Positions 1,650-27,690 of a stretch of DNA of 37,899 nt are shown piece after piece. The notes beneath the pieces are model-generated. The model was not told the DNA's origin. It saw nothing but the letters and a program-made list of their open reading frames with translations, and ran no database searches. Numbering within the stretch: position 1 is the first letter of the stretch; the number at the start of each line of letters is the position of its first letter. The stretch comes from Nemertoderma westbladi (taxonomy: Eukaryota > Animalia > Xenacoelomorpha), in the NCBI GenBank assembly GCA_032718475.1, contig JAUCBJ010000560.1, forward strand, positions 1 through 37,899, read 5' to 3'. Position numbers and translations under genes: made by a program.

Positions 1650-1962
1650 ATCTGCCTTATATATCCGCCTACTTCCACGTCGCTGTAATTCAAAGGAAGG
1701 AAAGCGACATGTTTCCACAGTCCCAGTAAAACTGCTGCGTCCCGAGTCAAACCTTCGTAAACGAAATATCGACCGCCAGTTTGCTGCCTCCTTCGTACAA
1801 GATCTCCACGAGGTGTGTTGTTTATTTGGAGGTACAGCAGTGACATTCATGTCCATTGATGATAAGGCCCGAATTCCAATTGGTCTAACTGCAGCCAACT
1901 CTCAAGCTCCACTAGCAATGCATATGGAATATCGGGTGCGCCTTCCTGACCATGATTTTGTC
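1650..1962 (+). pseudogene. Zator transposase exon 2, truncated after the first catalytic Asp region
   Basis: SALYIRLLPRRCNSKEGKRHVSTVPVKL...SIDDKARIPIGLTAANSQAPLAMHMEYRVRLPDHDFV. The DDKA...HDF pattern is that of Zator/TP36 (ISAzo13-related) transposases. The remainder is absent from the window. Confidence 0.75.
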
Positions 1963-4900
1963 CGAATGCCGAATGGGGCGACGAGTTTTCCCAGGTGGTT
2001 CGAGTTCGACTACGACGTCGATTCTGCCGAATGGGGCGACGAGCCTACCGGGCGCCGGCGGTCCCACTATGACGTCGATTCTGCCGAATGGGGCGACGAG
2101 TTTACCCGGTGGTTCGACGTCGCGGTTACCTGGTGTTTCGACGACGTTTCAGCCAAATGGGGCGACGAGTTTACCCGGTGGGTCAACGACGAGTTTACGC
2201 GGTGGGTCAACGACGAGTTTACCCGGTGGTTCGACGACGAGTTTACCCGGCGTTTCGACGACGATTCCGCCAAATGGGGCGACGAGTTTACCCGGCGGTT
2301 CGATGACGAGTTTACCCGGTGGTTCGACGACGAGTTTACCCGGTGGTTCGACGACAAGTTTACCCGGCGGTTCGACGACAATTCTGCCGAATGGGGCGAC
2401 GAGTTTACCCGGCGGTTTGACGACAACTCTGCCAAATGGGGCGACGAGTTTACCCGGTGGTTCGACGACGAGTATTCCAGGTGGTTTGACAACGAGTTTA
2501 CACGACGGTTTGATGACAATACTGCCGAATGGGGCGATGAGTTTACCAGGTGGTTCGTCGACGAGTTCACCTGGCGTTTCGACGACGATTCCGCCGAATG
2601 GGGCGACGAGTCTACCTGGTGGGTCAACGACGAGTTTACCCGGTGGGTCAACGACGAGTTTACCCGTTGGTTCGACGACGAGTTTACCCGGCGTTTCGAC
2701 GACGATTCCGCCAAATGGGGCGACGAGTTTACCCGGTGGTTCGACGACGAGTTTACCCGGTGGTTCGACGACGAGTTTAACCGGTGGTTCGACGACAAGT
2801 TTACCCGGCGGTTCGACGACAATTCTGCCGAATGGGGCGACGAGTTTACCCGGCGGTTTGACGACAACTCTGCCAAATGGGGCGACGAGTTTACCCGGTG
2901 GTTCGACGACGAGTATTCCAGGTGGTTCGACAACGAGTTTACACGACGGTTTGACGACAATACTGCCGAACGGGGCGACGAGTTTACCAGGTGGTTCGTC
3001 GACGAGTTCACCTGACGTTTCGACGACGATTCCGCCGAATGGGGCGACGAGTCTACCTGGTGGTTCGACGACGAGTTTATCCGGTGGTTCGACGACGAGT
3101 TTACCCGGTGGTTCGATGACGAGTATTTCAGGTGGATCGACGACGAGTGTACCCGGTGGTTCGAAGACGAGTTTACCCAGTGGTTCGACGACGAGCTTAC
3201 CCGGTGGTTCGACGACGCGGTTACCCGGTGGTTCAACGACGATTCCACCAAATGGGACTACGAGTTTACCCGGCGGGTCGACGACGATTCCGTCAAATGG
3301 GGCTACGAGTTTACCCGGTGGTTCGACGACGATTCCGCCAAATGAGGTTATGAGTTTACCCGGCGGTTCGACGACGATTCCGCCGAATGGTGCGACGAGT
3401 TTACCCCGCGGTTCGACGACGATTCCGCCAAATGGGACTACGAGATCACCAAGCGGTTCGATAACGATTCCGCCGAATGGGGCGACGAGTTTACCCGGTG
3501 GCTCGACGACGATTCCGCCAAATGGGGTTATGAGTTTACCCGGCGGTTTGACGACGATTCCACCGAATGGTGCGACGAGTTTACCCCGCGGTTCGACGAC
3601 GATTCCGCCAAATGGGACTACGAGATTACCAAGCGGTTCGATAACGATTCCGCCGTATGGGGTTACGAGTTTACCCGGCGGTTCGATGACGATTCCGCCA
3701 AATGGGGTTACGAGTTCACCCGGCGGTTCGACGACGATTCCGCCGAATGGTGCGACGAGCTTACCTGGCGGTTCGACGACGAGTTTACCCGACGGGTCGA
3801 CGATGAGTTTACCCGGCAGTTCGACGACGACTCTGTCGCATGGGGCGACGAGTTTACCCTGTGGATCGACGACGAACTTACCTGGCAGTCTGACGACGAG
3901 TTTACCTGGCGGTTTGACGACATACACCCTCCTGGACCAGGTAGGCCCGGGAAACCAGACAGCCGATGACCTGGTCCAGAGGTGTCTTCCTGAAAACTGG
4001 AACGACAACTTTAATATGATAGTCTCAGGATCTGATCCATCTACGGGTAAGATGACGACTCCAATGTCCCCACCAATCTCGACCACCACAAACTCTGTGA
4101 ATAACGCTATTATGGTTGAGGACCCAGCAGATGGTGGTAGCTGGTGCAATAGGACGACTACTACACCTATCCATATGAAACCACCCCATTCTGGCGGCGT
4201 TTACAATACTGCACACCCAAGCTGGTTAGGCCCGGGTAACCATACAGCCAATGACCCGGCTCGGGTGCGTCAGGAAAGCACAAACAATGGCTCCAAGTTT
4301 GGCGCTGGTACTAGCCCTATCCCAGTTACAAATACAAACTTTTTGGTGCGTATACCTAATAATATTTCTATATTTACTAGTTATAGTAACTGTGTTACCA
4401 CTACTATATCAGCAGCCAAACAACCACTGGTAAGTACAGCTGTTCGCCGAGCTAAGAGGGGTCCTGGTTACTGGCAGCAGCTTGGGAAGAAATGCCAGGC
4501 AACCAGACCGCATACCAGGAGCCAAGGTGCCCTTCCTAAGACAATACCCTACAATCCCAGACAGGTTAATGACTCACCAGACGCAATAGAACCTAATAGA
4601 GCAATAGAGCCGATTGCAGATCAAAATGATGTGAATGCAGATCAAGGTGCAGCCGCAACCAGCGACCCACCTTCTCCAGTGTCTATAACAGTGAGTGATG
4701 GTTTCTCTTTGACGCAGCCTGGTCAGCTGATCCCAGATTGCCCACCATTCATGGATATATCAGAGAGTGGATTAGAGCGACTTAGCGGACAAGGTAAGGT
4801 TGACATACTAAAGGAAGCATTCATCTCTGAGGTGGTCGACAATGATGTTTATCTGGGAGGAAATGAACCTGATGCTGCCTCCTGCAACTGCGTTTCTCAG

Positions 4901-7834
4901 GGGGATGCTAATACATGCTCAGAGGTGGCAAATTTGCAGGGACCAGAGGAGAACTATGGGGACCACATGTGTTCCAATTCTATTCAAGGTGCAGTAACTG
5001 GGCAGGAGACACTGATACACAGAGTGGATGACCTCCAGGATGACCTCACCTGGAAGCCCAGATATATCACCATAAATGCATACCCACGCCCAAAAGAAAA
5101 TGAGACAATGTCCAAGATCACCGACTTCTATCATCCAACAACCAAGGATGTTACATTTATACTCGATCCAGAAGTGGAAGAATTCCAACCTGCCGCACTG
5201 GTGACAAACACATATCCACAGGATGTATCAGAGCTCCCTCTGTCTCAGCAAGAGGAGCTAATGAGTCTGTTTCCTGATAGTGATGATAAGTCCTGTCCCT
5301 TGGCTATCATAAAGGCTATAACGAAACCACGGCGCCCAGGACACAGGATATACATCCCTCCATCTTGGAAGGATCTTCAATCACTTAAAGGGGACAGTTA
5401 TTTGAGCGATACTATTGTGGATGCATTTTTCACATTGTTGGAAAGGCAGATTCATGGTGTAGTAACTATTCCCATAGAATTTGCAAGGAAACTACACCAG
5501 CAAAGCTATGATCTAGCTGCAGCAGTTAGATATGTCACCAGCAATTCAAGTATTCATGAAAATAACATGCTGTTGATACCAGACATTCACAAAAAACACT
5601 TCACACTGCACATTGCTGACCCAAGTAAAAGGGAAGTTTTCACACTAGATTCATTAAATGAGACATCAACAGTACCAGCTACAATAGCAGGTAGCATTGC
5701 AAAAATTTTGAACTTGATAAGTTCTGCCTCGGAGAATGACACCTCAAAGAGATGGGTGCCAACTAATATAAAGCGACCTTTCCCAGGGCAATCCAATCAT
5801 CATGATTGTGGGGTCTATGTCTGCATGTATGGCTTGTCTTTATCAATGAACTGGAACTCTTTATGCCCTTTTCACAAGGACAGCAGTAAAGTACGGAAAT
5901 GGCTAGGAAAGTGTTTAGAGGATGCTTGCATCCATGATTACCAGGGGTCTAGAATATTAGTCCCCATTCCTGCTGAATTAAATTCTCCTTCTGATAAGGA
6001 TAGTCTAAATAAAACACAGTGTGCCCTTGCTCAGCCATACCAATCAGTGAAGATGGCTCTTACATCTAATAGGAGAGAGATCAAGCACCCTTGTAAGCCA
6101 ATTAATAGCCATACAGTGAAACCTGCAGATGCAAATCCATGGATTGAATTTGACAAAATTACCACATCAGATGAATTCCTAGAGGTTGTACGTAAGCTAA
6201 AACTTATCCAAAATCCAAAAGAAGTATTTGCAAAGTCATTGACCTCTCTTGGTCTAGAGGCACTAACAAAATTTCAAAAGCTTCTCTTCAAAGACATAGC
6301 ACATAAAATTTTAGGTGAATCAAGTGGTTTGAACTTTCAGCTGATCAACAGAAGATCGATAGATGAAGCAGCGCTAGATGTTGCGGAATTTGCTATATGT
6401 TATGAAGAAAGGGCCCTATCAAACAGCTTCAAGAAACGAGTAAATGTGTCCAATGTGGACTCTCTTGGCTTTCTTCAACTTCTTGAACTGACAACAAATC
6501 TTCAGATCGAGGTTAAAACCCTCAAAGCAGAGAATAGCAATGCTATTGCTAGGATTGAGTCTCTAGAAGCTGCATTAACTCTAATACTCTCAGACAGTTC
6601 GCGGACAACTATCAAGAATGCATGTACACCCTTACAACTAGCAAAAGATGCCAATATTAAAACACACCCTAAAAAGAAGAAAATATCTCATAAACATGAT
6701 AAACATGCTGGAAGCGGTAGTGGCAATAAAGGGGAAAATAATAAACAAGCAAATAAGGTAGAGCTAAATACAAACAATAAAAATGCCAAAGAACCTTCAC
6801 TGATTTGCAGTAATGCTAGGCAATATAAGAATATTGTAACGGGAAAAGAGGCAAATGAAAAGGAGTATGTATATCCATCTATTGACAACCCTAAATCCAT
6901 AGATCAAGTCTTGACAAGTGATCGGACTTGGAGAACCCCAATAAACCCGAGTCATCCAACAAATGATATAAATACAAAACATGATTACATAAAGACTAGC
7001 AATTTGTATGAGGATCTGGATACCGATGAAAAGCTTGCATTCCTGCTTGAAAATCAAACAAACTTTTTGGAGAAGCTAGATTCTAGTGACTGGTATCAGA
7101 ATCCTGCGAACAGGCATAATACCGACAGAATGTTAGGTAATAATATAAAGGCCGTGTCTCCAAGTGATACATGCAAGGTTAGGGTATATGGGTTGCCAAA
7201 AAACACCTCTCTGGAATCACTTTCATGTTTTTGCTACTCACAAATTGGGTGTACTCCCATAAGTGTCCAAATGGAAGACACAATGCCTGGAGAGAAGTTG
7301 GCTATTCTCACAATTGAACGTAGTACTCTGGAGAACTTTCTGCAACCATCACTTTGGCCTGGAGATAACATTTTTGTTGAACAGGTGGTGGGTACCTCAA
7401 TTAGTAAGGATAGATCTCTAACAAACCTAGCTGCTACTCCATCCCAAATTCATCATCACAGGAGAAAAACCCTCCTTCCTACACAAAAATTATTAGAAGC
7501 TCAAGTCCATGGGAATGCACACAGGCCTAGCTTCATGGATGAAAACGCATTCAAACCATTGAACAGGCCTAGGTTCATGGATGAAACCACATTCAAACCA
7601 TTTCATCCTATAAGGGAGCACGGAAAGTATAAAACTACAACTGCAATGCACTATACCCAATGTGTCCCAAAACAGGAGATTCAATTAGTCGGATATAGAT
7701 CTTCCAAACTTCGAAGTAGGGAGATTGGAAGATTCAATGACTGCTATGCTCTGGCTCAGAAATTTTATGATTCAAATAAATTTAACAAAACACAGACATA
7801 CCAAGGCAATCACCTGCAACATTGTCATTTTTAA
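1952..7834 (+). CDS. LINE ORF1: Ser/Thr/Pro/Gly repeat + Ulp1/SENP (C48) peptidase + coiled coil + RRM
   Basis: 1960-codon open frame. Protease motifs at ~5350-5930; heptads LTTNLQIEVKTLKAENSNAIARIESLEAAL (~6480-6580); RRM-like KVRVYGLP...FLQPSLWPGDNIFV (~7170-7385). The ATG at 1952 lies in Zator sequence, so the true start is uncertain. Confidence 0.85.
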   Translation: MILSECRMGRRVFPGGSSSTTTSILPNGATSLPGAGGPTMTSILPNGATSLPGGSTSRLPGVSTTFQPNGATSLPGGSTTSLRGGSTTSLPGGSTTSLPGVSTTIPPNGATSLPGGSMTSLPGGSTTSLPGGSTTSLPGGSTTILPNGATSLPGGLTTTLPNGATSLPGGSTTSIPGGLTTSLHDGLMTILPNGAMSLPGGSSTSSPGVSTTIPPNGATSLPGGSTTSLPGGSTTSLPVGSTTSLPGVSTTIPPNGATSLPGGSTTSLPGGSTTSLTGGSTTSLPGGSTTILPNGATSLPGGLTTTLPNGATSLPGGSTTSIPGGSTTSLHDGLTTILPNGATSLPGGSSTSSPDVSTTIPPNGATSLPGGSTTSLSGGSTTSLPGGSMTSISGGSTTSVPGGSKTSLPSGSTTSLPGGSTTRLPGGSTTIPPNGTTSLPGGSTTIPSNGATSLPGGSTTIPPNEVMSLPGGSTTIPPNGATSLPRGSTTIPPNGTTRSPSGSITIPPNGATSLPGGSTTIPPNGVMSLPGGLTTIPPNGATSLPRGSTTIPPNGTTRLPSGSITIPPYGVTSLPGGSMTIPPNGVTSSPGGSTTIPPNGATSLPGGSTTSLPDGSTMSLPGSSTTTLSHGATSLPCGSTTNLPGSLTTSLPGGLTTYTLLDQVGPGNQTADDLVQRCLPENWNDNFNMIVSGSDPSTGKMTTPMSPPISTTTNSVNNAIMVEDPADGGSWCNRTTTTPIHMKPPHSGGVYNTAHPSWLGPGNHTANDPARVRQESTNNGSKFGAGTSPIPVTNTNFLVRIPNNISIFTSYSNCVTTTISAAKQPLVSTAVRRAKRGPGYWQQLGKKCQATRPHTRSQGALPKTIPYNPRQVNDSPDAIEPNRAIEPIADQNDVNADQGAAATSDPPSPVSITVSDGFSLTQPGQLIPDCPPFMDISESGLERLSGQGKVDILKEAFISEVVDNDVYLGGNEPDAASCNCVSQGDANTCSEVANLQGPEENYGDHMCSNSIQGAVTGQETLIHRVDDLQDDLTWKPRYITINAYPRPKENETMSKITDFYHPTTKDVTFILDPEVEEFQPAALVTNTYPQDVSELPLSQQEELMSLFPDSDDKSCPLAIIKAITKPRRPGHRIYIPPSWKDLQSLKGDSYLSDTIVDAFFTLLERQIHGVVTIPIEFARKLHQQSYDLAAAVRYVTSNSSIHENNMLLIPDIHKKHFTLHIADPSKREVFTLDSLNETSTVPATIAGSIAKILNLISSASENDTSKRWVPTNIKRPFPGQSNHHDCGVYVCMYGLSLSMNWNSLCPFHKDSSKVRKWLGKCLEDACIHDYQGSRILVPIPAELNSPSDKDSLNKTQCALAQPYQSVKMALTSNRREIKHPCKPINSHTVKPADANPWIEFDKITTSDEFLEVVRKLKLIQNPKEVFAKSLTSLGLEALTKFQKLLFKDIAHKILGESSGLNFQLINRRSIDEAALDVAEFAICYEERALSNSFKKRVNVSNVDSLGFLQLLELTTNLQIEVKTLKAENSNAIARIESLEAALTLILSDSSRTTIKNACTPLQLAKDANIKTHPKKKKISHKHDKHAGSGSGNKGENNKQANKVELNTNNKNAKEPSLICSNARQYKNIVTGKEANEKEYVYPSIDNPKSIDQVLTSDRTWRTPINPSHPTNDINTKHDYIKTSNLYEDLDTDEKLAFLLENQTNFLEKLDSSDWYQNPANRHNTDRMLGNNIKAVSPSDTCKVRVYGLPKNTSLESLSCFCYSQIGCTPISVQMEDTMPGEKLAILTIERSTLENFLQPSLWPGDNIFVEQVVGTSISKDRSLTNLAATPSQIHHHRRKTLLPTQKLLEAQVHGNAHRPSFMDENAFKPLNRPRFMDETTFKPFHPIREHGKYKTTTAMHYTQCVPKQEIQLVGYRSSKLRSREIGRFNDCYALAQKFYDSNKFNKTQTYQGNHLQHCHF
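1967..3922 (+). repeat. CpG-rich coding minisatellite, 24-bp and 45-bp units with higher-order duplications
   Basis: Units ACGACGAGTTTACCCGGTGGTTCG (TTSLPGGS) and TTIPPNGATSLPGGS. A 441-bp block repeat (marker GAGTATTCCAGG at 2470 and 2911) and a 180-bp block repeat (~3434 and ~3614). Confidence 0.95.
5350..5930 (+). other. Ulp1/SENP-type cysteine protease domain within ORF1
   Basis: DLQSLKGDSYLSDTIVDAFF; LLIP...HFTL (His 5597); TLDSL (Asp 5648); QSNHHDCGVYVC (oxyanion Gln, Cys 5807). Confidence 0.85.
7521..7602 (+). repeat. 42-bp tandem duplication in the ORF1 C-terminus
   Basis: HRPSFMDENAFKPL / NRPRFMDETTFKPF. Confidence 0.85.
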
Positions 7835-10800
7835 ATCTCACAATGCAACAAAAGACATATTCACAGTCATGACCTTTAATAGCAATGGATATGTGAGATC
7901 ACAGGAATATATACGGAAACTATTAGCAAATGAGAAACCTGACATACTGGTAATTCAAGAACATTGGCTTTCTGCTAGGGAGGCTATTCACTTCCTAAAG
8001 CAGAAAGATCAGGTGCCAAAGGGGTACAAAGTGTATTACACCATAGCTGACGCCATGATGAGTCCTAAAGCAAGAGTTAGGGGAGAGGGGGGTGTAGCCG
8101 TGATGATAAGGGAGGACATAATGCCTCACACTTCAATGTTGAAATCAGGATCAGACAGAATGGTCGCCATAACTGTTAAAGGTTTATTGGATAAAGACCT
8201 TCTAATTATAGGTGCATATATGCCCTGTAATGGTGGGACAGGGGAGGACAGAGACAACTATATAAAGGTTGCAGCAATGTTGTCCACCATTATAGAAGAT
8301 GCAATTGAGAGTCGCATGGAAGTAATGATCATGGGAGATCTCAATGGTAATGTCATTAAATCAGATAATCCAAGAGAACAGACAAGCTATTCTGATTTTG
8401 GCACTCTATTCAATGAGAACATCACTGACACTTTTGATCTAAACCCAACCACAGTTGAATCACATGCACTGGGGCCACGTGCTACTTATAGATTTAGAAA
8501 TAAACTGGGCAAGGTAATCAGGCAATCTTTTATAGATCATATTGTAGTATCCAAAGACATGTTTGACAGCCTTTTGTTCACCAAAGTCTTCAATACTGAT
8601 GTTGATAATGTATCTGACCATGTCCCAGTATATTCAACCTTCTACACAAACCTTGCCCAAACCGCAGGGAACTTTAGAGGGACCGAGAGTAAATGGGCAA
8701 GACATAAGAGACCTGTATTTTTGTTTGGGAGAGCAACTCAGAGTGATATGGAAAATTATCAAGAGGAGGTATGTCGCTACTTGAAAATATTCTCCGATAG
8801 GACATCTGATGCAACACAGATCTTGAGGGAAGACTTAGAGCTCCGTGCCAAGGGATTGATCAATACTTTGTATGAAGCAGCTAGAAAGAACATCCCTCAT
8901 GTATTTCCAAGACACCATAAGGGACTTAGGAACCGGCAAAATATAAGACCACTGGATCACTATTGGCACTCAATGAAAGGGAAGATAACAATGGTTGATA
9001 GGGATGATGGGAATCCTTATATATCACTGCTAGAAAACAAAAGAATGAGGCACCGAGCAGAGAATCATACATACTGGCAACATATAAGGAATTTGGCCAA
9101 TGACTGTCGTTCGAATCGCAACAGATTTTGGTATAAATTGAAGTCAGAAAACAGGGTTGCTAAGACTGATGTCCATAGGGACCAACTTTACTCGGACTAT
9201 ATGGAAAGATTCAGCATAAAGAGTATTCATAATCAAGATCATCATGACAATTTGCTTATATTGGGAACTGAACATGAACCTTCTGGAAATTTAGTAAATG
9301 CAGCTGATGTGGATACTGCCATAAAATCACTCAATAAAGGCAAAGCGTCAGATAGCAATTCTCTTAAGGCCGAACATCTCCTTTACAGTCGGTCAAATGA
9401 GCTCCATGGGTTCCTAGCAGATTTATATAATGATATAATGGCCACTGGCTACTTTCCCAAATGTTTATGTACAAGCATTCTGATGCCGCTTCTCAAAAGT
9501 GAGGATCGAGACAAGCATCAGACAGGGAGTTATAGAGGTGTCTCGATTATTTCAATCTTGGCTAAAGTGTGGGAGATTCTGGTCTCAGAAAAGGTCCGTA
9601 ACATAAAAACGAGTAACCTACAAATGGGATACAAATCAAAACTAAGTACAGAGATATCATATGCAGTAGCAACAAATCTGATCCGGTACTTCAATGAAGG
9701 GGGTTCAAATGTCTACATGGTTTCACTTGATTTGACAAGCGCATTTGATTCTGTCTCATACGAGAAACTAATGACAAAATTAGCAGAAACTACTCTTGAT
9801 GTAAGAATCATTCGAACACTATGCTCCTACTATAGCCAATCTGTAGCATTGATGAGGATAGGTAACAGTATCTCAAGGAAACCAATACCACTACGACGTG
9901 GAGTAAGACAAGGTGGTGTCTTATCATCAATCCTCTTTAACATATATCTTGATGACTTGTTCAACCTTATTGAATCAGCAGGTTTTGGGCTGCATATAAA
10001 TAGGGAAGCATACTCAATCTTAGGCTATGCCGATGATGTCCTACTCCTAGCTAACATGGGAACTGATATTCAGAAGATGCTATACTTATGTGAACAATAC
10101 TTTAAAGAGCATGACCTGGTCATCAATTTTAAGAAGACACATTATGTAATATGCCCATTCTCAGCACGAGCAGATATGGGCAAATCAGAAAGCATACACA
10201 CTGGGAGTGGTGCAAAGTTACAGGCAGTTTCAAAATGTATATACTTAGGGCTGCCTTTGCCACCATCAAGACAGAACATAAGTGACTACTTTACAAGGAA
10301 GATATGGATGAATACATCCAGGATTAATATACGTGGCTTGGCTAGTGATGATGTGCCGCTGGATATTACTGCTTTGGTGTGGGGTGCCATATCCGCTCCA
10401 TCAATATTATATGGGTCACATATTATTGAGGGGGCACTAGGAGAATGTATTGGTCGGACCTGGCGTAAAGCGCAACGTTCTTTGTTACGCATGGGGAATT
10501 ACATATCAAATGATATCCTGCAGGCGCTCTTTAATGATCGAACATTTTCAACTATGGTAACACTTTCAAAGGCGAGGGTAATTTACTCCTGCATGAACTC
10601 TGGTAATGAGAAGGTTTATGGGTTGTTTAGCCACATTCTAACTCAACATCTTGCAGGTCAAATGTCTGTGCCGCTGTTTTCGGACTATTCCATAGGAGGT
10701 TGGAAGCTTGGTTTGCCACGACTGCAAGCTCTAGTAACCGGACGATACTGCCTTAAGTCAATCATTAAACGGATTGGAGGGACGGAGCTATGCTTTATGG

Positions 10801-10904
10801 ATCAGATGCGCGTCCTATATATCACTAACATGCTCTATAAAACTGGTACGCAATTGTCGGTCAGGAGGGAGTGTATTCAAGAGCTTTATCGACTTCAGGT
10901 GTGA
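7737..10904 (+). CDS. LINE ORF2: apurinic-like endonuclease + reverse transcriptase
   Basis: APE motifs TFNSNG, IQEHW, GGVA, GAYMP, GDLN, IDHI, SDH. RT motifs YRGVS, QMGY, LDLTSAFD, GVRQGGVLS, YADD, YLG. First ATG at 7737; the frame is open from 7725. Confidence 0.95.
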   Translation: MTAMLWLRNFMIQINLTKHRHTKAITCNIVIFKSHNATKDIFTVMTFNSNGYVRSQEYIRKLLANEKPDILVIQEHWLSAREAIHFLKQKDQVPKGYKVYYTIADAMMSPKARVRGEGGVAVMIREDIMPHTSMLKSGSDRMVAITVKGLLDKDLLIIGAYMPCNGGTGEDRDNYIKVAAMLSTIIEDAIESRMEVMIMGDLNGNVIKSDNPREQTSYSDFGTLFNENITDTFDLNPTTVESHALGPRATYRFRNKLGKVIRQSFIDHIVVSKDMFDSLLFTKVFNTDVDNVSDHVPVYSTFYTNLAQTAGNFRGTESKWARHKRPVFLFGRATQSDMENYQEEVCRYLKIFSDRTSDATQILREDLELRAKGLINTLYEAARKNIPHVFPRHHKGLRNRQNIRPLDHYWHSMKGKITMVDRDDGNPYISLLENKRMRHRAENHTYWQHIRNLANDCRSNRNRFWYKLKSENRVAKTDVHRDQLYSDYMERFSIKSIHNQDHHDNLLILGTEHEPSGNLVNAADVDTAIKSLNKGKASDSNSLKAEHLLYSRSNELHGFLADLYNDIMATGYFPKCLCTSILMPLLKSEDRDKHQTGSYRGVSIISILAKVWEILVSEKVRNIKTSNLQMGYKSKLSTEISYAVATNLIRYFNEGGSNVYMVSLDLTSAFDSVSYEKLMTKLAETTLDVRIIRTLCSYYSQSVALMRIGNSISRKPIPLRRGVRQGGVLSSILFNIYLDDLFNLIESAGFGLHINREAYSILGYADDVLLLANMGTDIQKMLYLCEQYFKEHDLVINFKKTHYVICPFSARADMGKSESIHTGSGAKLQAVSKCIYLGLPLPPSRQNISDYFTRKIWMNTSRINIRGLASDDVPLDITALVWGAISAPSILYGSHIIEGALGECIGRTWRKAQRSLLRMGNYISNDILQALFNDRTFSTMVTLSKARVIYSCMNSGNEKVYGLFSHILTQHLAGQMSVPLFSDYSIGGWKLGLPRLQALVTGRYCLKSIIKRIGGTELCFMDQMRVLYITNMLYKTGTQLSVRRECIQELYRLQV

Positions 10905-11181
10905 TAGATCAACCACTTAGCCTTTAGACTGGGGGCTTTCGATGGGGGCTTGTATTTCAGGATGGATGCAAATGGTACTCAAGTGCTTTTTATTATAAGG
11001 GCTTGTAGATTAACTAGATCTTGAAGTAGACTTGATCAGCGTTTTCATTTTACCCAGTGCTGTGTTTAAGTGTTTTGAATTTTTGGGTTTTCAGCGTTTC
11101 CATTTTACTCAGTGCTGTGTTGTTTTGAAATTTAGGTGCATCTAAGATTACCTAATTTTATTGTATATTTTATTTAATTAT

Positions 11182-11226
11182 AATAAAGGGGCCGAGCCCT
11201 ATCTCGGATGATGAAATGAAATGAAT
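11182..11226 (+). other. LINE 3' terminus: AATAAA, hairpin and simple-repeat tail
   Basis: AATAAA 11182-11187; CCGAG-CCCTAT-CTCGG 11192-11207; ATGATGAAATGAAATGAAT 11208-11226. Confidence 0.75.
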
Positions 11227-12220
11227 GCTGGATACTCTTGAAAACAGTGTCGCTACCATGACGACGGCTAACAGCTGATATTGCCACGTCGACGTTTCTT
11301 TGTTTCTTTGTTCTCTCGTTGTTCAGGTTGACCAATCAGAGCGTTTTTTGTCTCTGTGTTGGAGGTGTATACAGAACTCAGTAGTTCAGTGTTATGTTTT
11401 TTGCCTAGAGCCTAAGAACATCGGCCTTTGGCACCTCCGTATATCAGCGTTCTTTAGCTTTACATTAGTAGGCTTAATTATAGAACGTATATCTGTTATC
11501 AACCTATCTACTCCATACAATCTAACCAAACTAATTATATGCAATTCATATCTTACATTACTGCTTTTGCTGTTGGTTATTCGTTATATTTGTTGATGAA
11601 TTATTATATCGGAATACTGATCAATAGTCAGACACCCCACCTTCTTGATATACTAAAGGTTAGAGAGACCGGTTACAGATAAACGATTGCGACCTATGTT
11701 GAGTGGTTTGAAGTGAATCTAATGCTATTTCATATGCCCAACATAAATTGTCTGTTGCTCTCTTTATACGTGACTAAATTTAGTGAAGGTTGGCAGATTA
11801 GTGTGCAGTATTGTGCAGCATTGTGTATGATTGTAACTGATAACAAAGCATCTCCTAAAGAATGCGCCATATACGTTAATCTATAGCCTTTTCGTTGTGA
11901 CTAGTTTAAGTCATAACTCTGTTTACATATTTAGAGCGCCACGTCCTAAAGGAACTGTTAATATTTCCCGAAAGTGAATAATATTTGTCAGAGATTATAT
12001 ATTACGATCAGTCGAATAATACAGTAGGCTTACACCATCAATCATTAAGCTCCGAACTCAGTCTCCCGGGTATATCCAACGGGTGAATGATTGCGCATAG
12101 ACTGGCTTCGGCTAATGTAGTGTGTCAAATACTCGTCATAAAGCTAAAGAATATATATCATCTAAAAGACATTCTAATTTTGGCAGGTTAAACTGTCAAA
12201 GGTCTTCAAAAGCGCAAACA
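11227..12220 (+). repeat. 5' LTR, missing its first 185 bp
   Basis: Matches 30601-31592 with about 4 substitutions and 2 single-base indels seen by eye. Ends AAACA; CCAAT box near 11332. Confidence 0.95.
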
Positions 12221-12234
12221 ATAACAGATATACG
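12221..12234 (+). promoter_or_regulatory. Non-tRNA primer-binding site candidate (complementary to an LTR-internal 14-mer)
   Basis: ATAACAGATATACG is the exact reverse complement of CGTATATCTGTTAT at 11486-11499 (30858-30871 in the 3' LTR). No TGG directly follows the LTR. Confidence 0.7.
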
Positions 12235-12503
12235 CTTCTGGATTGCGGTGTAAGCAATCTAGTAGAAAGTACCGGTCGACCGGTAACCAGTAGGCCTGAC
12301 TGCCTGATCATCCGGACCGGTACCTACTTACGGTACAGGTACAGCAGTATTATTCGATTGTGGTATTGTATACCGGTAGGCTGTTTAAGAGATTAGGGAC
12401 TGTACACCCCTTGTTTCTTTTGGAGCTTACTTATTTCTGTCAGTTTTATTTATTTGTAGGCCAGTATTGAGCAGAAGGCGTGTAAGCCTGTGCAGATTGT
12501 ACG

Positions 12504-14398: not shown

Positions 14399-16031
14399 AT
14401 GTCTGATACTAAGCAGAACCTGTCAGACAGTTTATTAGATGTAACTATCTGCGACTCAGATAGAGGTGTAGAACCGTCTATTCCTAAGTTCAGTTCACCT
14501 CCCACTGTGAGGAAAGTCATCCCTCCAGTAGTAATAACAGAACCTAGGCTGGTCCAGCACCGTAGGTCTATCATAGGCACTCGAGCCCGGGTCAAGCGGG
14601 ACCAAGAAGCAGCGGAACAGCAACAACCCGTGAGCCAAGAACTTATTTCTCAGCGGCCCGACAGCTCCAGTAGTGAAGATACTGTAGAACTGACACCCGA
14701 GCGCGGAGCAAGGATGACGGATGCAGTTTATTCGGATCCCCTTCTCATCCTTCCTGCAGCCGTACTCACTAGGTTATTGATCGCGGTGGAAGAACACCAG
14801 ATCGATTGGGCGAGAAGTAAGCGCTCAACTAAAGATATTTATGCGGGATACACAAAGGAAGAACTGAAATCTATGGTCGAGTCGCAATGGAACTTCCCCG
14901 GACCCGGACTCCCGTTTGATTTATCAGAAGCTGCCTGGGAAGACATACACCGAATGGGAGTAGCCAAGGAAACCATCGATCCAGCTGTGTGGAAGAGGTC
15001 CGCAGCCGGATACGCACAGGGATTCTTCAGCTCTATGGAGCGAGTAGAAAAACAACTGTTACAACAACCTCAAGGACCTCAAGAGCAGGGACAACTGCTT
15101 TATCAAGTTAGAGAAAGAATTCTGCGAATCAGGCTAATATTATCAGCCTTTGAAGAGGCTTCTAAAAGAAGACAAGACACGTCGTTGCAAGTTGCCGTAA
15201 AGACTTGGTTTCAACGGGTGAGTCGCCAGGTTCAAGGAACAGCTCAGTGGAAAGCTCAGCTGGAGGAGCGCTCAACCCATGGAGAATCAACAGACGCTAC
15301 TTTTTCCCAAGTGGAAGGTGAAGCGACGGCAGAAAAACCGCAAAAGAGGGATGCCATTGACATCTATCTGTCAGACTATCAGCGTTTCGTAGGTGATGAA
15401 GAGTTGCGGAGAAGACTAGAGGGGCTTAGCCCTAATAGTGAAGGAGCCCAGCGTGTGTTGGACGCAATCGATGTGGATAGGTTAGCTGCGAACCAAGCTA
15501 AATTCAATGAAAGCATCCGCATCGCTAAGGTTCAAGAAGAACAAGTAAGGAAAAAACGTATAGAAGATAGAAAGAAAGCGGCAGAGGCAAAAGCGGCAGC
15601 TGCAGCAGTAGAAGCCGAAAGAAAGGCGGTAGAAGCCGAAAGAAAGGCGGCCGAAGCGGAAAGAAAGGTGGCAGCTGCAGCAGTAGAAGCCGAAAGAAAG
15701 GCGGCCGAAGCGGAAAGAAAAATAGCAGTGGCAGAAGCAGAACGAAAGGCATCTGAAGAGATAACCCAACTAGAGTTGGAAAATCTTCAAGAGAAACAAG
15801 ACAACTTTAATAAACAGTTAACAGCTAGTAATATGCAGATGATGAATCGATCTACTCCCAAAAGACAGGGTTATACATCATCTGAGGAAGGCGATACCAC
15901 CGACACTGAAGGCGGAGGAAATCGATCTCGCCTAAGCAGACGTAAAAGAACATCCCACCGTCAGAAATTGCCTGATTTGCCTCCAGCTGTTAGAAGGCAA
16001 CTAAATAACACCAACTTAGGTAGTACAGAAC
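14399..16031 (+). CDS. BEL gag, N-terminal part (interrupted by the P element)
   Basis: ORF from ATG 14399 with a charged helical AEAERKA repeat. Removing the P element and one TSD joins it in frame (GSTE-PTDQIITIERL) to 20700 onward. Confidence 0.85.
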
Positions 16032-16377
16032 CATGGCCTACTTTATAAGAGGCCATGACAACGCACGGGCAAATAGCTGACTTGGAGGCCACTTTGTTTA
16101 TGGGTGTAAGTCGGAATATATGGTAGATACAAACTTCTAACCTTTACCTACCCCCACTAAGTCGATGCTGAGGATCTCAAATATCATATTTAAAATTGTT
16201 TATCTCGAGACCCTGTTGCTATGGCAACATCTAACTTCTAAACGGCTGCAGATACAAACTTCTAACCTTTACCTACCCCCACTAAGTCGATGCTGAGGAT
16301 CTCAAATATCATATTTAAAATTGTTTATCTCGAGGCCCTGTTGCTATGGCAACATCTAATCAGTGGATACCGGTTGA
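16032..16377. repeat. Left TIR of the P element with an internal ~110-bp direct duplication
   Basis: Reverse complement of 20465-20691; block 16125-16234 is repeated at 16250-16359. Confidence 0.9.
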
Positions 16378-16473
16378 ACTTCCATTAAAAAAATGAAAAT
16401 AATACTTAAATCAAATATATAAGTTGCGTATAAGTTACAGTAAAAGTAAATCAAATAAGTAGAAAAATAAGAA

Positions 16474-19033
16474 CTATAGTGACAACTTTAGTTTCTTAGT
16501 AGAAGATTCCTTCGAAGACAATGGTGTAAGGAGTTTCGTTTGATTGTTTAAAAAAATATTAGTTAGCTTCATTAGACACACTTGTGGAATCTCACCATCA
16601 AAATATTGACTTGACACAAAGCTAAAGTAGCTGCAAAGACTTCTCCGGCAAACTGAAAGCACACTGATGTTAAGAAAAAAAATAAAACAAAAAAAGGTAA
16701 ACTGCACTAGTATATCTGATGGTGTAGTAAGGCGACCTCGGTCTAGCTCTTTCAAATAGGTGCTGTACTCTGTATAGACAACTGTAGAAGGGTCTATGTT
16801 AGTATTCTCCGGTAAAGATCGCTGAAGATAACCGGCAATAAAGTACAACGCTTGTTTAGTGTCAACATTTATCTCATCTTCACACATAGGTAGTGTCTCG
16901 ACGAGATCTACAATAAATTCAGTCAATGTGACATTACATTTAGAGCATTTATGTGAGTCGTAATCGCTCTGCGTTGTTGACTGCTCATGTCGGAGAAACT
17001 CGAAATTAATTGAGGCTAACAGTTTTGTTTTTTGTATTTGGTAATACTGAAGGGCTTGCACTGCTGCAATGAAGTATGTTCCTCCCGCTGACTGGCGAAT
17101 CCGACCGAAAGCTTTTTCCAGTGGATCAGTGGTAAAATTACCACACAAAACATAATCGAAATTGCGTTGAAGTAACGATTTCACCAAATCTACAAAACCA
17201 CGAAACGTATGAACAATGGCGCTAGCTGTATCTGTTGTAAATGTCTGATAGCGAGTTTTACCATTTACACACCTCATTTTCTCAACATTAGAAGCTATAT
17301 CGAGCAGTATATCCAACCGTTTATCACCAGGATCTGATATGGGACTCCGCCATTCATCATTTAAATGTATAGCCTCGTTCTTGGACTTCACATTTAATAT
17401 CTTGAATGCCTTCACAAAAACTTCTATGAAATCTGCCGTGTCTTTGTCAGTTTTGTTTGATTTCGTATGAGTACGTAAAGCTGTTACAGTTTCGTCACAA
17501 AATACTCGAAGCATTAAACAAACGTCTTGTCTCTCAATAGGTTTCGGGTATACAGCTTTGTGAATAAGTCGATGACCAATTTTAACAACATTGGACTTCT
17601 CAGACTCGTATAAACTTCTAATACTCGACCAATTGGCTATCTTGCCATCAAGGTTTATTGCCTGGTTCTTTTCAGTGATCCAATTATTGCGAATTGATTT
17701 CATCAAGTGAACAAAATCAAACAAAAGAAATGTTCCCTGAGTGGTTAACCAAGGCTTTCCTACCTCAGTTTCAAATAAAGCAAAAAAGCTTCGATTGACA
17801 GACAGATTGTCACCAAGAATTGCAATAACATTACCATTAGCTGATTGAATGTTTAGATAAACATCTGTTATAACATCATATAGAAAACTTGAATCTAAAT
17901 TTAACACTGGCATCATGTTGTTCAGAAATGTTGGACCACCATGAAGGCATTTTAACATAACACCCAAAATAGTTTTGGCCAAATAGTTGGGATTGTTTTC
18001 AGCTATTCCAAATATGTGACCACCTTGGTAGGCCAATGCCGCCTTTACGTAAATTTCATCAACCAAGAGCACACAGTTCCGTTGCATCACTGATAGGTTT
18101 TTAAAAACTGCGTGTAAAAAGTTATGATCATCTAATTTATTTGCAGTCGAAGTTAGTCGTTGCAATGTACGGATTGATGGAAGAGGATACTCATTTAAAA
18201 TCTTTAAATACAGTTGCATACAGTCGACTAGTTGCATAATATTCAAAAGCACGAACCAAAACATCGGCAGTCCATTTCTGACAACCAACACGAACAGGTT
18301 GAAGTGACTTAATATCCTGAAGTAAAATATCGAGTTTGGAAGGGGTTTCCGCATTTGAAAGAAAATTAACCACATTATCTAATATTGACCAGCGATCAAT
18401 CACTTTTATACGCATGGAGTTTATAACGCAAAAGGGAACCGATATTTTAGCACCATATCTGTAAGACTCAAAAGTTAGATTCTTAAAGATCTTAAGAACA
18501 AACTTCGGAATTCCTGAACCAAACACAAATTCAGCACTTTGAATTATCGTCACCGGAACAGAAGAACCTGAAGATACTATTGCAGTAGCGGTGTAAACAA
18601 TAACATTATCCTTGATAATTTTTTTATCTCTTATCGCACCAACAACGTCTTTGTATTCGAACAAATCTTGTGCATTAAACTCGCCGAGCTGATCAGGTTG
18701 TATTTGGCGTGTACCAAAAGAAATTTTAGATACATCGCGCAGTTTTGGCTGAGATATGGGACAGCAACTTGGAGAAATCTGAGGCCATATCGAGGGGGGT
18801 TCGACAGGAATTAATTTCTGTGAGCGAAAAGCCCTACGTTGGGAAAACCCCTCCGGCCAATGCAGTTCACACACAACTGTGTGCTTGGAGACAATTAAAT
18901 TTTGGCGAACTTTCAATAGAACGCTCATCCATTGAGAATGGTACGGCTCGTCACTAGGAACTCGATAAACGGTTACCGGTGATTCATTTGCATAGTTGGA
19001 GCGACAAAGTGGAACGCAGCACTTTCTAGGCAT
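16474..19033 (-). pseudogene. THAP-domain P-element (THAP9-like) transposase, one frameshift near 18200-18225
   Basis: THAP MPRKCCVPLC..VP..W..VVCELHW..P; LPSIRTLQR; catalytic LVDEIYVK, LGDNLSVN, FDFVHLMKSIRNN, TDPLEKAFGRIRQ. Split over ORFs 19042-18191 and 18375-16474. Confidence 0.92.
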
Positions 19034-19275
19034 CGCATGCAATGCAACTAGAAAACCGCATGTAAATACTGAATGCAGGTAAGTAAGGACTCCGAGGCGA
19101 TGATTACTGCTTCAACTGTTCAATCTGTCGGTCACGGTCAGATCTCAGACGGTAATTACCGAATTAATAGACCACATCAACTGTCAAACATAATAAAACG
19201 AGGTACCGGTATCACAAACAACAATAGGCCCTATGTATTAAGCAAGGAGTATTAAGCCATAAGTGGTCACGGACA

Positions 19276-20319
19276 CAGGGCTGGGAAAAACCATAGGTTT
19301 TTCAGAAAAATTTTTAGGTTTTAGGTTTTTGCAAGGTTTTTGTAGGTTTTTGGAAGGTTTTTGCAGGTTTTTGAAGGTTTTCGCTAGGTTTTTGTAGTAT
19401 TTCGCTAGTTTTTTGTAGTATTTCTGTATTTGTATATTGATTGATTAGATTGACCTGGCTGCCTGGTTGGTAAATGATTAGATAAATTATATGGGGCGAC
19501 ATTTGGTCAACTGGTCAAGATTATATTTTATAGATACACTATCAGACTATGATACAAAATTGTTTGAAAGAATGAGTCCATCAGGTTTCATTGTCATATT
19601 AGTTACATTTATATAAACCTGTACAAAGTCTGAAAGTAGGCTTACAGCAGTACAGACTACAGTCTTAAATTCAGACAGTAGGTGCAACTATTTATTACAC
19701 TATTAGTGTATTAGTTCAGTAGTCTATTAGTATCATTAGCATCATCAATCTGTCAATGCATGCAGAATGCAGGCACGCGATTCAGCGAATGCAGAATGCC
19801 ACCCCATCCCACAGTCCCATTATACTACTAACATAAAAGCATAAGGCAAACCATACTGCCATAACCCGATAACCACCTGACTGCCTCTGTGACCACCAGC
19901 TGACCAGAGCCAGAGCTGCAGAGACCACCCACTGACGCTGACCCAGCCACCTGCAGACCTGGCTGCCTGGACCACTGCTGCACCGTACGTGTACAGTTAT
20001 CAGCAGCAACGTAGGCTGTCAGGTAGTTGAGTTACCGGTCAGCCGGTACCGGACCATCTGACTGCTAACTTACATCAGCTAACTTGCATCAGTCAGCTTG
20101 TCAGAAGTGACAAGACAACTGGACTGGACTGGAACTCATCAGCTGACAATGCAAGTTGACTTGTTCAGTTGTTTTGAGTGTACAAATGAAATTAAAAGGC
20201 AAATTAAAGATGAAAAATCAAAAACCTAAAAACCTAGTTTTAGGCTTTTTTCAAATTTTAGGTTTTTGACAAAAACCTACAAAAACCTAGGTTTACAAAA
20301 ACCTACTTTGCCAGCCCTG
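19276..20319. mobile_element. Non-autonomous hAT element nested in the P element
   Basis: TIR CAGGGCTGG(G/C)AAA; 8-bp TSD CACGGACA at 19268-19275 and 20320-20327; clustered AAAACC(T) subterminal repeats; no transposase. Confidence 0.9.
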
Positions 20320-20464
20320 CACGGACACCGATAAAGGATAAGTACTATATGCTATACATTTGGAAGAAAACAGAATACAGAAGTACACATGAAGTAGGCC
20401 GCCCCACTAGAAACTAGGCATATACAGATATAGGCTACATGCTATACAGACAGACAAATACCGG

Positions 20465-20691
20465 TCAACCGGTATCCACTGATTAGGCCTAGATGTTGCC
20501 ATAGCAACAGGGTCTCGAGATAAACAATTTTAAATATGATATTTGAGATCCTCAGCATCGACTTAGTGGGGGTAGGTAAAGGTTAGAAGTTTGTATCTAC
20601 CATATATTCCGACTTACACCCATAAACAAAGTGGCCTCCAAGTCAGCTATTTGCCCGTGCGTTGTCATGGCCTCTTATAAAGTAGGCCATG
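20465..20691. repeat. Right TIR of the P element (~227 bp)
   Basis: Essentially perfect inverted copy of the left end. Confidence 0.9.
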
Positions 20692-20699: not shown

Positions 20700-21772
20700 C
20701 CACAGACCAAATAATTACAATAGAGAGACTCCCTACTATAGTAGATGAGCCTGAAATAATTAGGCCTGTTCCCGAAGCCACCCTTTCGGTCGTAGAGACA
20801 CCTGTACTCCCTGAACCTACTTCTCAATTCCCTTTGCACAGCACTAAGCTACCTGTGCCCAGCAGAACAGTCCGTGAGACAGTTCATACCCTGGACTCCG
20901 AGCGAAATATTCATGATTTGTCGCCCGTTGTCCCTCGTCCGCCCGCTACAACGTTGGCGAATCCCGCTTCGGCGGTCGAATGGGTGGATGAGAGACGACG
21001 GGGGATGGATCTCCTGCTCGGACAGATGCAGGAGACTGTTCAACAATTCAAAGGCACAGTAAGGGAAAGTAGGCTAGAGTTGCAAGAAGTGCAGCAAAGT
21101 ATCGCGCTAGAACGCGATAAATTAGTAAATACACAAAGGGGTATACCACCACCCCCTGTAACCATGTGTCAACCTGTTAGGTCTGAAGTATCTCATGCGC
21201 AAGGTGTGGAGCCTACACGCATCTATACTGCTAGCGAAGTAGAAACTCCTATAGTGAACCCTATTAAGGGTAATTATAGACCTGTTGATAATGATATTCC
21301 CTATAGACCGGATCATAATCCGAGAAATTTATATACCGATAACTCGATATTAAATAACACGATGGCCCAAGAAAGTTTTACGCGTCAAATGGCTAGAACC
21401 GAAGCCCTGCAAGCAGTAAAGGTGGGAGAGATCGTCAAGTTCAATGGAGATGAGATGAAATGGTTACCTTTTAATGAATATTACAAAGATAACATACAGA
21501 ACTCTGTGCTATCTAATGGAGAGAAACTTAGATTCCTCATCGAGTGCTTGGAAGGATCTCCCAAGTTAATGGTGTTAAAGTTTATTGGACATCCAGACGG
21601 ATTAAGACAAGTTTGGGATACACTAAACATCAGGTATGGTAATAGGAATAACATAGCTGGGTATTTGTATGCAAAGTTGGTAGCGCCCCGAAAGTTTATT
21701 AGTAGCGGAATTATAGAGTTTTCCGATGAGATTCAGGAGATCTGTAGACAATTAGATTGGCTAGTCTCATGA
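20700..21772 (+). CDS. BEL gag, continuation (DUF1759-like capsid region)
   Basis: KFNGDEMKWLPF...LSNGEKLRFLIECLEG...WDTLNIRYG. Stops at TGA 21770, where the frame shifts +1. Confidence 0.85.
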
Positions 21773-21785
21773 GTATCAGAATGCT

Positions 21786-24700
21786 ATGGTTATTAGAGCA
21801 GTGGCTTCTACTTTACCGAAGGGTGGAGTAGGTACACGCTGGGATAAGAAAGTGTTATATATGATGGAACAACAACGACGAGACCCTACCATGGCTGATC
21901 TCATGTCATTCCTAGATGGAGAAGTGAAATTACAGCTCCTGAAACTGTCCAGAGAGAAGACACCGGAAAACAAGGTAAGTGAAAAACCCGTCTCTAGGAG
22001 AAAGGTAACACCAGTGTGTTATACAGATGATGGCGAAAGCCAGACTTCTCAAGGAGAAGATAGCGGGAAAGACACTGACCGCGCTTATTACGTAAATAAA
22101 ATGCCAAAAGATCAGGTAAGTAAATTCAAGTCTCGAACAAATGACAGGAGAGAACAGGTAAGAAAAACTCCTCCCACGTCTCCCAAGAGAATTCAGGTGA
22201 GAAAGCCAGAAGAAAAAGCAAGTGTACACAATGTGACTCAGAGTAAGGTGAGTAACATCAAACCGAAATGTGCGCTATGTGACGGGACCCATCGCTTAAA
22301 TATGTGTGATGAATTTCTAAAGAAATCATTAACTGAGAGACGTGAAGTCATGTGGGACAAGCGGTTGTGCTATAATTGCCTCAGACAAGGACACCAACGG
22401 CGAACCTGTTACTCTGACACAAGATGTGCCAAGTGCGGTGCGAAACATCATATCTTGTTGCACACTGAATTCGAGCGAAATAGTCCGAGTCAGGTAAGTG
22501 ATTCCGAATTACATGTCCAATTCAGTGATGTGAACGACACTGATCAATCTGAGATGGAAGGATTCTATACGGACGAGTTCTCCGACGAAAACGAATCCTG
22601 TTACATGATAAATACCACAGTGTATCGAGCACTCATTTATGAAAAGGATACATCAGACATTGACCTTGCTTTAACTACTTCTGATCGACAACCATCTTGG
22701 AAAGCGCCAACTTCCAATGTAGGGATTAGAGAATTTCCTGTGGTACAGGTAAGGGTCCACGGACCAAACAGGAGTTATGTAGTGAACGCCCTCCTTGACT
22801 CCGGTAGTACAGGAACATTCATCGACAAAGAGCTAGCCGAAGACATATTCGCTGGACAACCCAAGTTCCGAACTAAGCTAAACATGTCAGGAATTATGCA
22901 AGTTTGGAAATCCACAGTAACCGCGGATTATTATGTAGGTGCGTTGTCCACCCCCCAGGACGAACTAGGAGAACATAGCATAAGGTCAGTGAAAATGGTG
23001 GCTATAAAGAACTTCGCTACTACTCAAGCAGACCTTTATAATTGGGACGAGGATGAGAGCATCCAACATCTTAAGATACCTCGATTCCAGACAGATTATC
23101 CTGGAGTGCAAATACTCATCGGTCAAAATGCGCATGAAGCGCTCGAGACATTAGAGAAACGACCTGCTCAACCGCAACCTCTACAAGTTTATGCGGGAAG
23201 AACTAGAGTAGGTTGGTACTTTACTGGCCCTTCCCGTAGAACTCTAATGGAAAGATTACCGAAAGACCAAGTATATCAAGCACGAGAATGGGAAGTTGAG
23301 AACAGTGAGTTCGACGATCCAACTGAGGGAACTCCATACTCCTCAGACAACGACGATATACATCAACTTTTTGATGAGGAGAATGCCATCGATCTCCTTA
23401 AGGAAAGCGAGACTTGGCAAAATCAAGTGAACTTATGTCAACTCCTTCACCCATCTGAGCGAGACGACTATAACGACGAGCTTAATGACGTCATTGAACG
23501 TTATAATGCCAAGACTCGGGATGAACATGCCGTGAGATTCTTTACTCAAGAGGTCGTAGAGCCCAACTCCTACGATAAGGCCCTATCGGTGGAGGAAGAA
23601 AGAGCCAAGCAGATCCAAGCGACAACTACTCGTTTTCTTAAAGATCAAGGAAGGTATGAGATCGGACTTCCTTTCCGAAAGCGAGAACCAAAGTTTATTA
23701 ACAACAGACCTTTGGCGGAGAAAAGAATTGCTCAACTACATCGACGCCTTACGGCAAATTCTTCAGCTAAAGAAATGTATAAAACACAGTTGAAGAAGTT
23801 TATTAGCAAAGGATATGCGGAGCTAGTACCGGAAGAAACACCCATAACTGAGAGAACGTATTATTTAACTCACCATTACGTTCCCAAACCCGGTAAACCC
23901 CATGAAGTACGAGTGGTGTTTGATGGTTCCGCCCTTTATATGGGCCAATCTCTTAATTCTGAATTGTTACCCGGACCCAACTTACTCCAATCCTTGTTGG
24001 GAATACTACTGCGATTAAGACAATACTCCATTGCTTTCGCCTCAGATATAGAAGGCATGTTCTTACAAGTCAAAGCGCTGGATAGGGATCGAGATAGCCT
24101 ACGATTTTTGTGGTGGCCTGAAGGAGACCTCAACCAGAAACCGGTGGAATACTGGATGACCATCCAGGCTTTTGGGATAATCTCGAGCCCTTCAAACGCC
24201 TGTTCCGTGGTGCGCACTACTGCGGATGACAACCGAGACGCCTTCTCTAAAGAAGTGATCGACAATATCAAACGAGACATCTACATGGATGATAATCTGA
24301 AGTCCCTTCCATCAGTCGAAGAAGCCATTGATGTCGCTAAAGGAACGGTAGAGTGCTTAAGAAGAGGTGGATTTCGATTAACTAAATTCACCAGCAACTC
24401 CCGTGAGTTTCTGGAGTCGATCCCGGTAGAAGATCGAGGAACAAAAGACCTAGATCTTATAAAGGATGATCTCCCAGAAACTAAGACCCTTGGTTTGAAA
24501 TGGGACACAGAAAGAGATGTCCTGTTTTTCCAACTAAAACAGCGAGATAATCCAGTTCGGACTAAACGGATATGTTTAAGTATCCTGAGTACTTATTTCT
24601 ATCCATTGGGATTTATTAGCCCAGTTATATTGATTGCTCGGAGTTTAGTACAACAAATGTGGCTTGAAAACCACTCATGGGACGATCCACTTAAGGGAGA

Positions 24701-27167: not shown

Positions 27168-27690
27168 CAACGGCTGGAGTGGGTGTGTGACCATATCACT
27201 TTATATTTGTATTTGTTTTATTTTATATTTATGTATATATTATTATGTAATTTTATTTTAATCGTTTTATTTAATTTTATTTAGTAGTATGGTATTTTAG
27301 AGATTATTTAGTAGATTAGTGCAATATATATTCGCGTTTATTATTTAATTACGTATATTATATATTTAGTGCGACGGCGAGAAATAATTATTTTTCTCTT
27401 TCCTTACTGTCCGTATTATATTATAAATACGTGACTACAGTAAGATGAAATATCCGTACTTTAAAGTACAATAAAGCCACTACTATATTTAAGTATTATT
27501 GGTAGGCAGAGTATTAGGAATGCAAAGTTCAGATCCTCGTGTCTCGGCTAAACCAAGCTCTGGGTAGACCTTGGAAACGACTTGCCTCTTCACACTGACA
27601 TTGCTTCGTGCGATATTGCTCTCATACCGTATATTAAATAATACATATAGTAGCGTGATGTCCCTTTAACAGTAGCGTATAACGCAAAAT

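Follow-up and report, generated by a model that had tools for sequence, protein, structure and literature searches.

The LTR retrotransposon at 11227-31592 of the stretch analysed here (the window, 37,899 nucleotides of Nemertoderma westbladi DNA) is predicted from its sequence to prime reverse transcription with RNA of its own LTR, by whichever route that RNA is supplied (probability about 0.85). The primer-binding site (PBS) behind its 5' LTR is complementary to a segment inside that LTR, and the corresponding sites of related BEL/Pao elements covary with their own LTRs, mostly across the junction of an intron.

Structure and identity of the element

The element is bounded by a complete 3' LTR of 1,177 nt (30416-31592, forward strand, TGT...ACA) and by a 5' LTR (11227-12220, forward strand) whose first 185 nt are missing at the junction with a neighbouring LINE. 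Alignment of 11227-12220 with 30601-31592 (994 nt) gave 99.4% identity, with four substitutions and two one-base indels. The true start of the LTR was placed at 30416, where a purine tract is followed by TGT and an imperfect terminal inverted repeat. Unrelated flanks meet the LTR at 30415/30416 in four contigs of run X5, and one contig of that run continues upstream of the 5' copy as the 3' LTR does. Neither AATAAA nor ATTAAA was found anywhere in the window's LTR. The LINE (1916-11226, forward strand), whose tail replaces the LTR start, encodes an endonuclease-RT in ORF2 and, in an ORF1 of 1,972 aa with long tandem repeats, a peptidase domain of the Ulp1 family (Peptidase_C48, E 7e-6). Fragmented frames at 240-1960, which we take to resemble a DNA transposase, are cut off by the LINE. 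Beyond the element, a FLYWCH frame (35677-36237) amid inverted and 22-nt tandem repeats at 35296-37516 probably belongs to a further DNA transposon.

The coding region was assigned to BEL/Pao in the original prediction, and the assignment held. A profile search identified the Pfam domains DUF1759, Peptidase_A17, Integrase_H2C2, and DUF5641 in BEL/Pao order, and the motifs DSG and YMDD and three Cys-His boxes were present in the translated gag and pol. PF05380 was present in all of the at least 120 RT-RNase H protein matches listed, at 34-44% identity; the RT-RNase H region was closest to BEL/Pao proteins, and trees concur. On the forward strand, a long gag start lacking a Pfam match (14399-16031) is broken off at 16032, gag continues with DUF1759 at 20700-21772 until a frame change near 21770, and 21765-27167 encodes the gag end with the Cys-His boxes, protease (DSG), RT (YMDD), RNase H (Peptidase_A17), and integrase (H2C2, DUF5641). 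This copy has been disrupted by the frame change and by a THAP/P-element-like DNA transposon inserted in gag (16032-20691, reverse strand) with 202-nt terminal inverted repeats and an 8-bp target duplication. The inverted repeats of this transposon are perfect, and the repeat is partly duplicated internally. Behind pol lies a 3.2-kb 3' region (27168-30407, forward strand) whose short frames (29088-29636, 29426-29992, and 30072-30389) belong to no known family. The overlapping frames at 29088-29992 and the frame at 30072-30389 gave no Pfam match, and the region may be a decayed extra gene. It is followed by a polypurine-tract-like GGGAGCGG (30408-30415, forward strand); a G-rich tract likewise precedes TGT in the relatives described below.

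The TG...CA ends of the LTRs and the purine tract ahead of the 3' LTR are those of BEL/Pao elements. Such elements have been described as tRNA-primed, as the original prediction stated: the ICTV profile of the Belpaoviridae lists a PBS of 18 nt, for tRNA-Arg or tRNA-Gly, together with a size of 4.2-10 kb, and calls replication poorly understood (PMC8742986). The window's element has no tRNA-Arg or tRNA-Gly PBS and measures about 15.9 kb after subtraction of the inserted transposon, which exceeds the ICTV range because of a 2.2-kb leader, the long gag start, and the 3.2-kb 3' region. Since membership in BEL/Pao rests on the proteins, the missing tRNA site was read as a gap in the family description; Sinbad, which is accepted as a member, has no such site either. 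No chromodomain match was found and the proteins are of BEL/Pao type, so the element is not a Ty3/gypsy chromovirus of the Tf1/sushi group.

Complementarity between the PBS and the LTR

The sequence was re-read at the 5' LTR's end and bore out the original description: the LTR ends in AAACA at 12220 and is followed not by TGG but by ATAACAGATATACG (12221-12234, forward strand), the candidate PBS, which adjoins the LTR end. This 14-mer is the exact reverse complement of 11486-11499 and likewise of the second copy of that segment at 30858-30871 (both forward strand). The predicted self-primer segment is contiguous and corresponds to nt 443-456 of the 1,177-nt LTR, with the LTR end 721 nt further on. 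Pairing was also confirmed beyond a one-nucleotide bulge, where after an unpaired C at 12235 positions 12236-12240 pair with 11485-11481 (the last pair being G-U), and on the other side it halts exactly at the LTR edge. The chance of such a match, put at about 1e-5 beforehand, came to 1.8e-5 by analytic recalculation and to 7e-5 with four offsets allowed. When the LTR was shuffled 20,000 times with its dinucleotides preserved, no shuffle gave a 14-nt match at any of the four offsets, the best being 13 nt, obtained twice, and a complement of 12 nt or more was found at none of 18,130 internal positions. Among the 40 of 53 variants listed, none fell within 30858-30871, and 30813-30833 and 30884-30904 were variable.

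Searched with ARAGORN and Rfam, neither the window nor either of its LTRs yielded a tRNA or a credible RNA family. A putative consensus splice donor, GTAAGC, was recognized by motif match 15 nt behind the PBS (12250-12255, forward strand), and it lies in the loop of a local hairpin directly behind the PBS (12240-12259). A second helix between the LTR (30579-30586) and the leader (12240-12247), of eight pairs found by eye, was rejected as near chance and in competition with this local hairpin. In a diverged copy represented by one contig of run X4 (organism B), compared over 30855-30884, two of the 14 positions of the primer segment are changed. In diverged subfamilies the sequence is common up to just past the primer segment and then differs (30872-30930 and 11500-11566).

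Covariation and intron-split primers in related elements

A scan of metagenome contigs kept 80 loci, which formed 60 families at 80% identity. Repeats resembling LTR ends were present at 16 loci; L053 and L064 were excluded because their repeats did not end where the LTR does (L053 showed the junction later), and L054 because its LTR was only partly resolved and without the signature, though other loci of its family show the junction. This left 13 relatives with a fixed LTR end, including L018, for which the LTR end was shifted back by hand after its complement had been seen. TGG was found within 8 nt of the LTR in 0/13. The covariation of PBS and LTR expected from the original prediction was observed at all 13 loci, each of which pairs over 10-15 nt with its own LTR, starting 0-5 nt from the LTR end, by means of 12 distinct 11-mers; with the window's element included, 14 elements carry 13 different 11-mers. 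When partners were swapped among 13 elements (including the window's, with L060 omitted as a twin of L057), one of 156 pairs reached 10 nt, and junction matches did not exceed 7 nt.

Contiguous complements of 10-12 nt, like the 14-nt one of the window, were present in three of the 13 relatives (L029, L045, and L066). The other ten pair only across the junction of a GT-AG intron with the donor GTAAG (nine loci) or GTACGT (one locus). At these ten loci the direct match is 5-7 nt long and always lies right behind a pyrimidine-rich AG, and the remaining match consists of the bases just ahead of an upstream GT donor, giving a total of 10-15 nt. In L040, exon 1 ends in AATCG, exon 2 starts with TTTGAC, and the PBS is GTCAAACGATT. 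No intron was found in the LTR of the window's element: strong donors (GTAAG/GTGAG and GTAYGT) are absent from it, the best donor score is 5.5 against a median of 10.6 in the relatives, and the pyrimidine tract that goes with the AG at 30854 is weak.

The upstream regions were also scanned with no LTR end given, using rules derived from the first locus set. Matches were obtained in 13 of 63 regions and in 0/63 in each of six control sets; each lies just past an LTR-like end (ACA or ATA at a distance of 0-5 nt) and about 1.5-2 kb ahead of the protein match. Four of these matches are loci of the first set, six belong to their families, and three are new families (L003, L011, and L052). Exon 2 of L052 starts with GTTAT, the letters with which the window's primer segment closes (11495-11499), and these shared letters hint at where a lost intron may have stood. 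A still wider scan returned many chance hairpins and served for leads only.

Over all 60 families, 18 were classed as intron-split, seven as contiguous only, and 35 as without the signature, a tally that includes hand-picked leads and, among the seven contiguous families, four in which the LTR end is not independently fixed. Most of the 35 are represented by contigs without an LTR, and L002, L027, and L056 have no signature despite long upstream DNA. Pairing extends over 10-12 nt in 16 of the 18 intron-split families, and AATAAA or ATTAAA stands behind the primer end in 15. The loop, which measures 51-193 nt in the 16 intron-split relatives for which it was determined, bears out the earlier remark that the loop of the window's element, at 721 nt, is unusually long. 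An initiator-like motif ahead of the relatives' donors was not enriched (9/18 against 6.8 expected). L059 has two acceptors, 75 and 305 nt beyond a single donor, and identical runs of five primer letters come after both. No relative was found in a scan of viral contigs.

That the intron is real was seen by comparison of L026 with L040, which are 90% identical over 7 kb except that L026 lacks exactly the predicted 168-nt GT-AG intron; its junction is the predicted one, whether L026 stems from DNA or from RNA. Two loci, L042 and L048, represent integrated copies flanked by 5-bp target duplications. Their LTRs carry the intron, which was observed in the 3' copies of both loci and in the 5' copy of L042; the two LTRs of L048 are 96.5% alike across their whole length. 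The published sequence of Sinbad, inspected by eye (PMC554778, supplement 1), has no TGG behind its 386-nt LTR; after four spacer bases, its nt 391-401 (11 bases) are complementary to the junction formed across a GT-AG stretch of 35 nt (199-233). The main text of that paper makes no mention of a PBS, tRNA, or priming (PMC554778).

Place of the element in the clade

For a tree computed by fast search, 53 RT-RNase H pieces were used, with a single outgroup set of seven moth elements as the root; the moth elements came from a search with Tamy, which gave none of the named references BEL, Tas, Suzu, or Sinbad. The window's element fell inside the node (SH-aLRT 97.7) to which all signature loci belong; its branch is long and basal, with unsupported neighbours, and its exact position within the clade is likewise unsupported. 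At three points of the tree, contiguous forms sat within intron-split groups, a pattern consistent with repeated intron loss, and the window's family is likely an intron-less descendant of an intron-bearing lineage. Its element would fall within the Sinbad clade of the Sailor lineage, Sinbad itself standing outside the trees. The original prediction had proposed an independent origin of tRNA-free priming within the Belpaoviridae; the covariation in relatives speaks for tRNA-free priming in this family, but the signature is not special to the window's element and is widespread in the clade, so that the intron-less form of this copy looks like a lineage trait and not like a one-off origin.

Proposed priming route and alternatives

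For the supply of the LTR RNA we lean towards a route in cis from the 5' LTR, as in Tf1. Transcription would start at 11486 or slightly upstream, 11486-11499 would fold back and pair with 12221-12234, and the element's RNase H, whose domain is present and whose activity is predicted, would cleave behind 11499. RT would then extend the cut end across about 721 nt of R-U5, and the DNA would transfer to the 3' LTR copy, the source of everything upstream of the cut. Plus-strand synthesis would copy the primer into the PBS and so keep the pair in step during drift. Copying of the primer back into the PBS by plus-strand DNA has been described (excerpts of PMC7175516 and, for Tf1, of PMC11042837), and Tf1 cDNA carries the copied PBS (excerpts of PMC11042837); here it would explain both the covariation and a PBS that reads like a spliced junction.

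Folding was computed over 24 segments of the window. The LTR-PBS duplex prevailed (P 0.87-1.0) in five, each of which begins between 11467 and 11486 and extends no further than 12300; among the others, P was 0.17 in one and 0.0 in 18, with the duplex 3.5-11.9 kcal/mol worse than local folds. Folding thus gives the advantage to the 721-nt loop only where the start of the RNA is near 11486. This result counts against the cis route, as do the length of the loop compared with that in relatives and the absence of a canonical polyadenylation hexamer from the window's LTR.

In a large animal BEL/Pao lineage that includes Sinbad, we consider it probable that the host spliceosome builds the RT primer, that the intron is kept by way of an unspliced LTR copy, and that repeated loss has given rise to Tf1-like forms such as the window's. 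The 5' copy in intron-bearing relatives would be spliced to make the primer, and the unspliced 3' copy would pass the intron on; splicing of the 3' copy as well would lose it. Because the primer would exist only after removal of the LTR intron, replication would depend on splicing. The claim makes exact predictions family by family, namely a junction, a cut site, and the end of the cDNA.

The LTR RNA could also come from elsewhere, either as a short separate LTR transcript acting in trans (from a solo LTR, through early polyadenylation, or by joining of a 5' donor to a 3' acceptor) or from the 3' LTR copy of the same RNA, a supply that we regard as possible but rather unlikely. Intron retention would then be explained without unequal splicing of two copies, the weak 721-nt cis fold would be avoided, and the element family is very abundant in organism A, as judged from contig matches. 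The acceptor with a nearby polyadenylation signal also resembles a terminal exon in 15/18 families, but these signals lie downstream of the primer end, which is therefore not a natural RNA end; a precise cut 4-8 nt into exon 2 would still be required, and Tf1 is a precedent for the cis route.

Long-range pairings between LTR and leader with other roles are known in retroelements, and the duplex might accordingly be selected for its structure (in control of translation, packaging, or dimer formation) while another primer is used. We hold this to be improbable, since the pairing always sets in 0-5 nt from the LTR end, the place at which minus-strand DNA must begin, no TGG site takes its place in any of the 14 elements, and the duplex length is near the 11 nt of Tf1. 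Slightly less credible still is priming by a host tRNA half or another host small RNA of which the LTR match would be a captured copy. Half-tRNA priming is known in Ty1/copia lineages (excerpts of PMC6317226); in the window, however, the lack of TGG means that there is no pairing with a CCA end, neither a tRNA in the window nor a tRNA-like match in either LTR was found, and the 13 primer sequences of the 14 elements each fit their own LTR, mostly across a splice junction. A functionless chance match or local inversion, for which the AT-rich sequence and an 8-nt partial match at 30810 might be cited, is already largely refuted by the shuffles (0/20,000), the internal positions (0/18,130), and the same geometry in relatives, and we give it next to no weight.

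Significance and comparison with known systems

If own-LTR priming applies, PBS finders based on tRNAs would fail on such elements, and the elements would escape control by tRNA fragments. With a splice-made primer, if true, the replication of these retrotransposons would be linked to host splicing and to use of the correct start site. A literature search that mostly left aside subscription papers, Repbase Reports, and GyDB found no report of BEL/Pao self-priming or of a primer made by splicing. Cer7 of C. elegans is said to encode its own tRNA-like primer, a proposal that the search did not confirm. The available excerpts of two BEL/Pao surveys (PMC3118150, PMC6238403) are silent on primers, and those of PMC11117352, PMC8220671, PMC2774666, and PMC13524379 contain nothing further on BEL/Pao priming.

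Self-priming has been described for Tf1/sushi (excerpts of PMC4600332, PMC6317226, and PMC5341516), as the original prediction stated; Tf1/sushi does not, however, belong to the only superfamily concerned, for in the TAR lineage of Ty1/copia (Houba, Osr-1) self-priming was predicted from sequence (excerpts of PMC6317226). As that prediction precedes ours, BEL/Pao would be the third superfamily. If a large part of the family self-primes, none of the three LTR superfamilies would be without self-priming. This has a bearing on the order in which tRNA priming and hairpin priming arose, a question that PMC3601003 raises (excerpts). The TAR elements resemble the window's in being non-chromoviruses with predicted self-priming; they differ in being plant Ty1/copia elements, and the excerpts at hand describe no intron-split primer for them (PMC6317226).

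The fungal GalEa copia elements, with their Conserved Hairpin Site, likewise have a conserved pairing in place of a tRNA PBS, but the excerpts available place the pairing partner downstream in the leader, whereas that of the window's element lies in the LTR (PMC5445492). With the Belpaoviridae of the ICTV profile the element shares domain order, LTRs, and purine tract (PMC8742986). With Sinbad of Schistosoma mansoni (Sinbad clade, Sailor lineage) it shares BEL/Pao identity, the lack of TGG, and an LTR-complementary PBS, and it is set apart by the intron-split primer, short LTR, and 6.3-kb length of Sinbad.

The closest likeness in mechanism is to Tf1. According to the excerpts consulted, the first 11 bases of Tf1 form a duplex with its PBS, and the cut made by RNase H follows base 11 (PMC7175516). 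The start given for the Tf1 PBS in the original prediction, ATAAC, is correct (PMC11042837), so that its first five letters are identical to those of the window's PBS. Tf1, Tf2, and Tj1 of the Tf1/sushi group also share, in the sources as available, a PBS adjoining the 5' LTR, an LTR-encoded partner of about 11 nt, and the absence of a tRNA. They differ in being Ty3/gypsy chromoviruses, whereas the window's element has BEL/Pao domains, a 14-nt duplex, and a 721-nt loop; the intron-split primer of its relatives is not described for Tf1 in these excerpts, and start site and cleavage have been demonstrated in Tf1, whereas those of the window's element are predicted from sequence. The element would thus work like Tf1 without being a member of the Tf1/sushi group.
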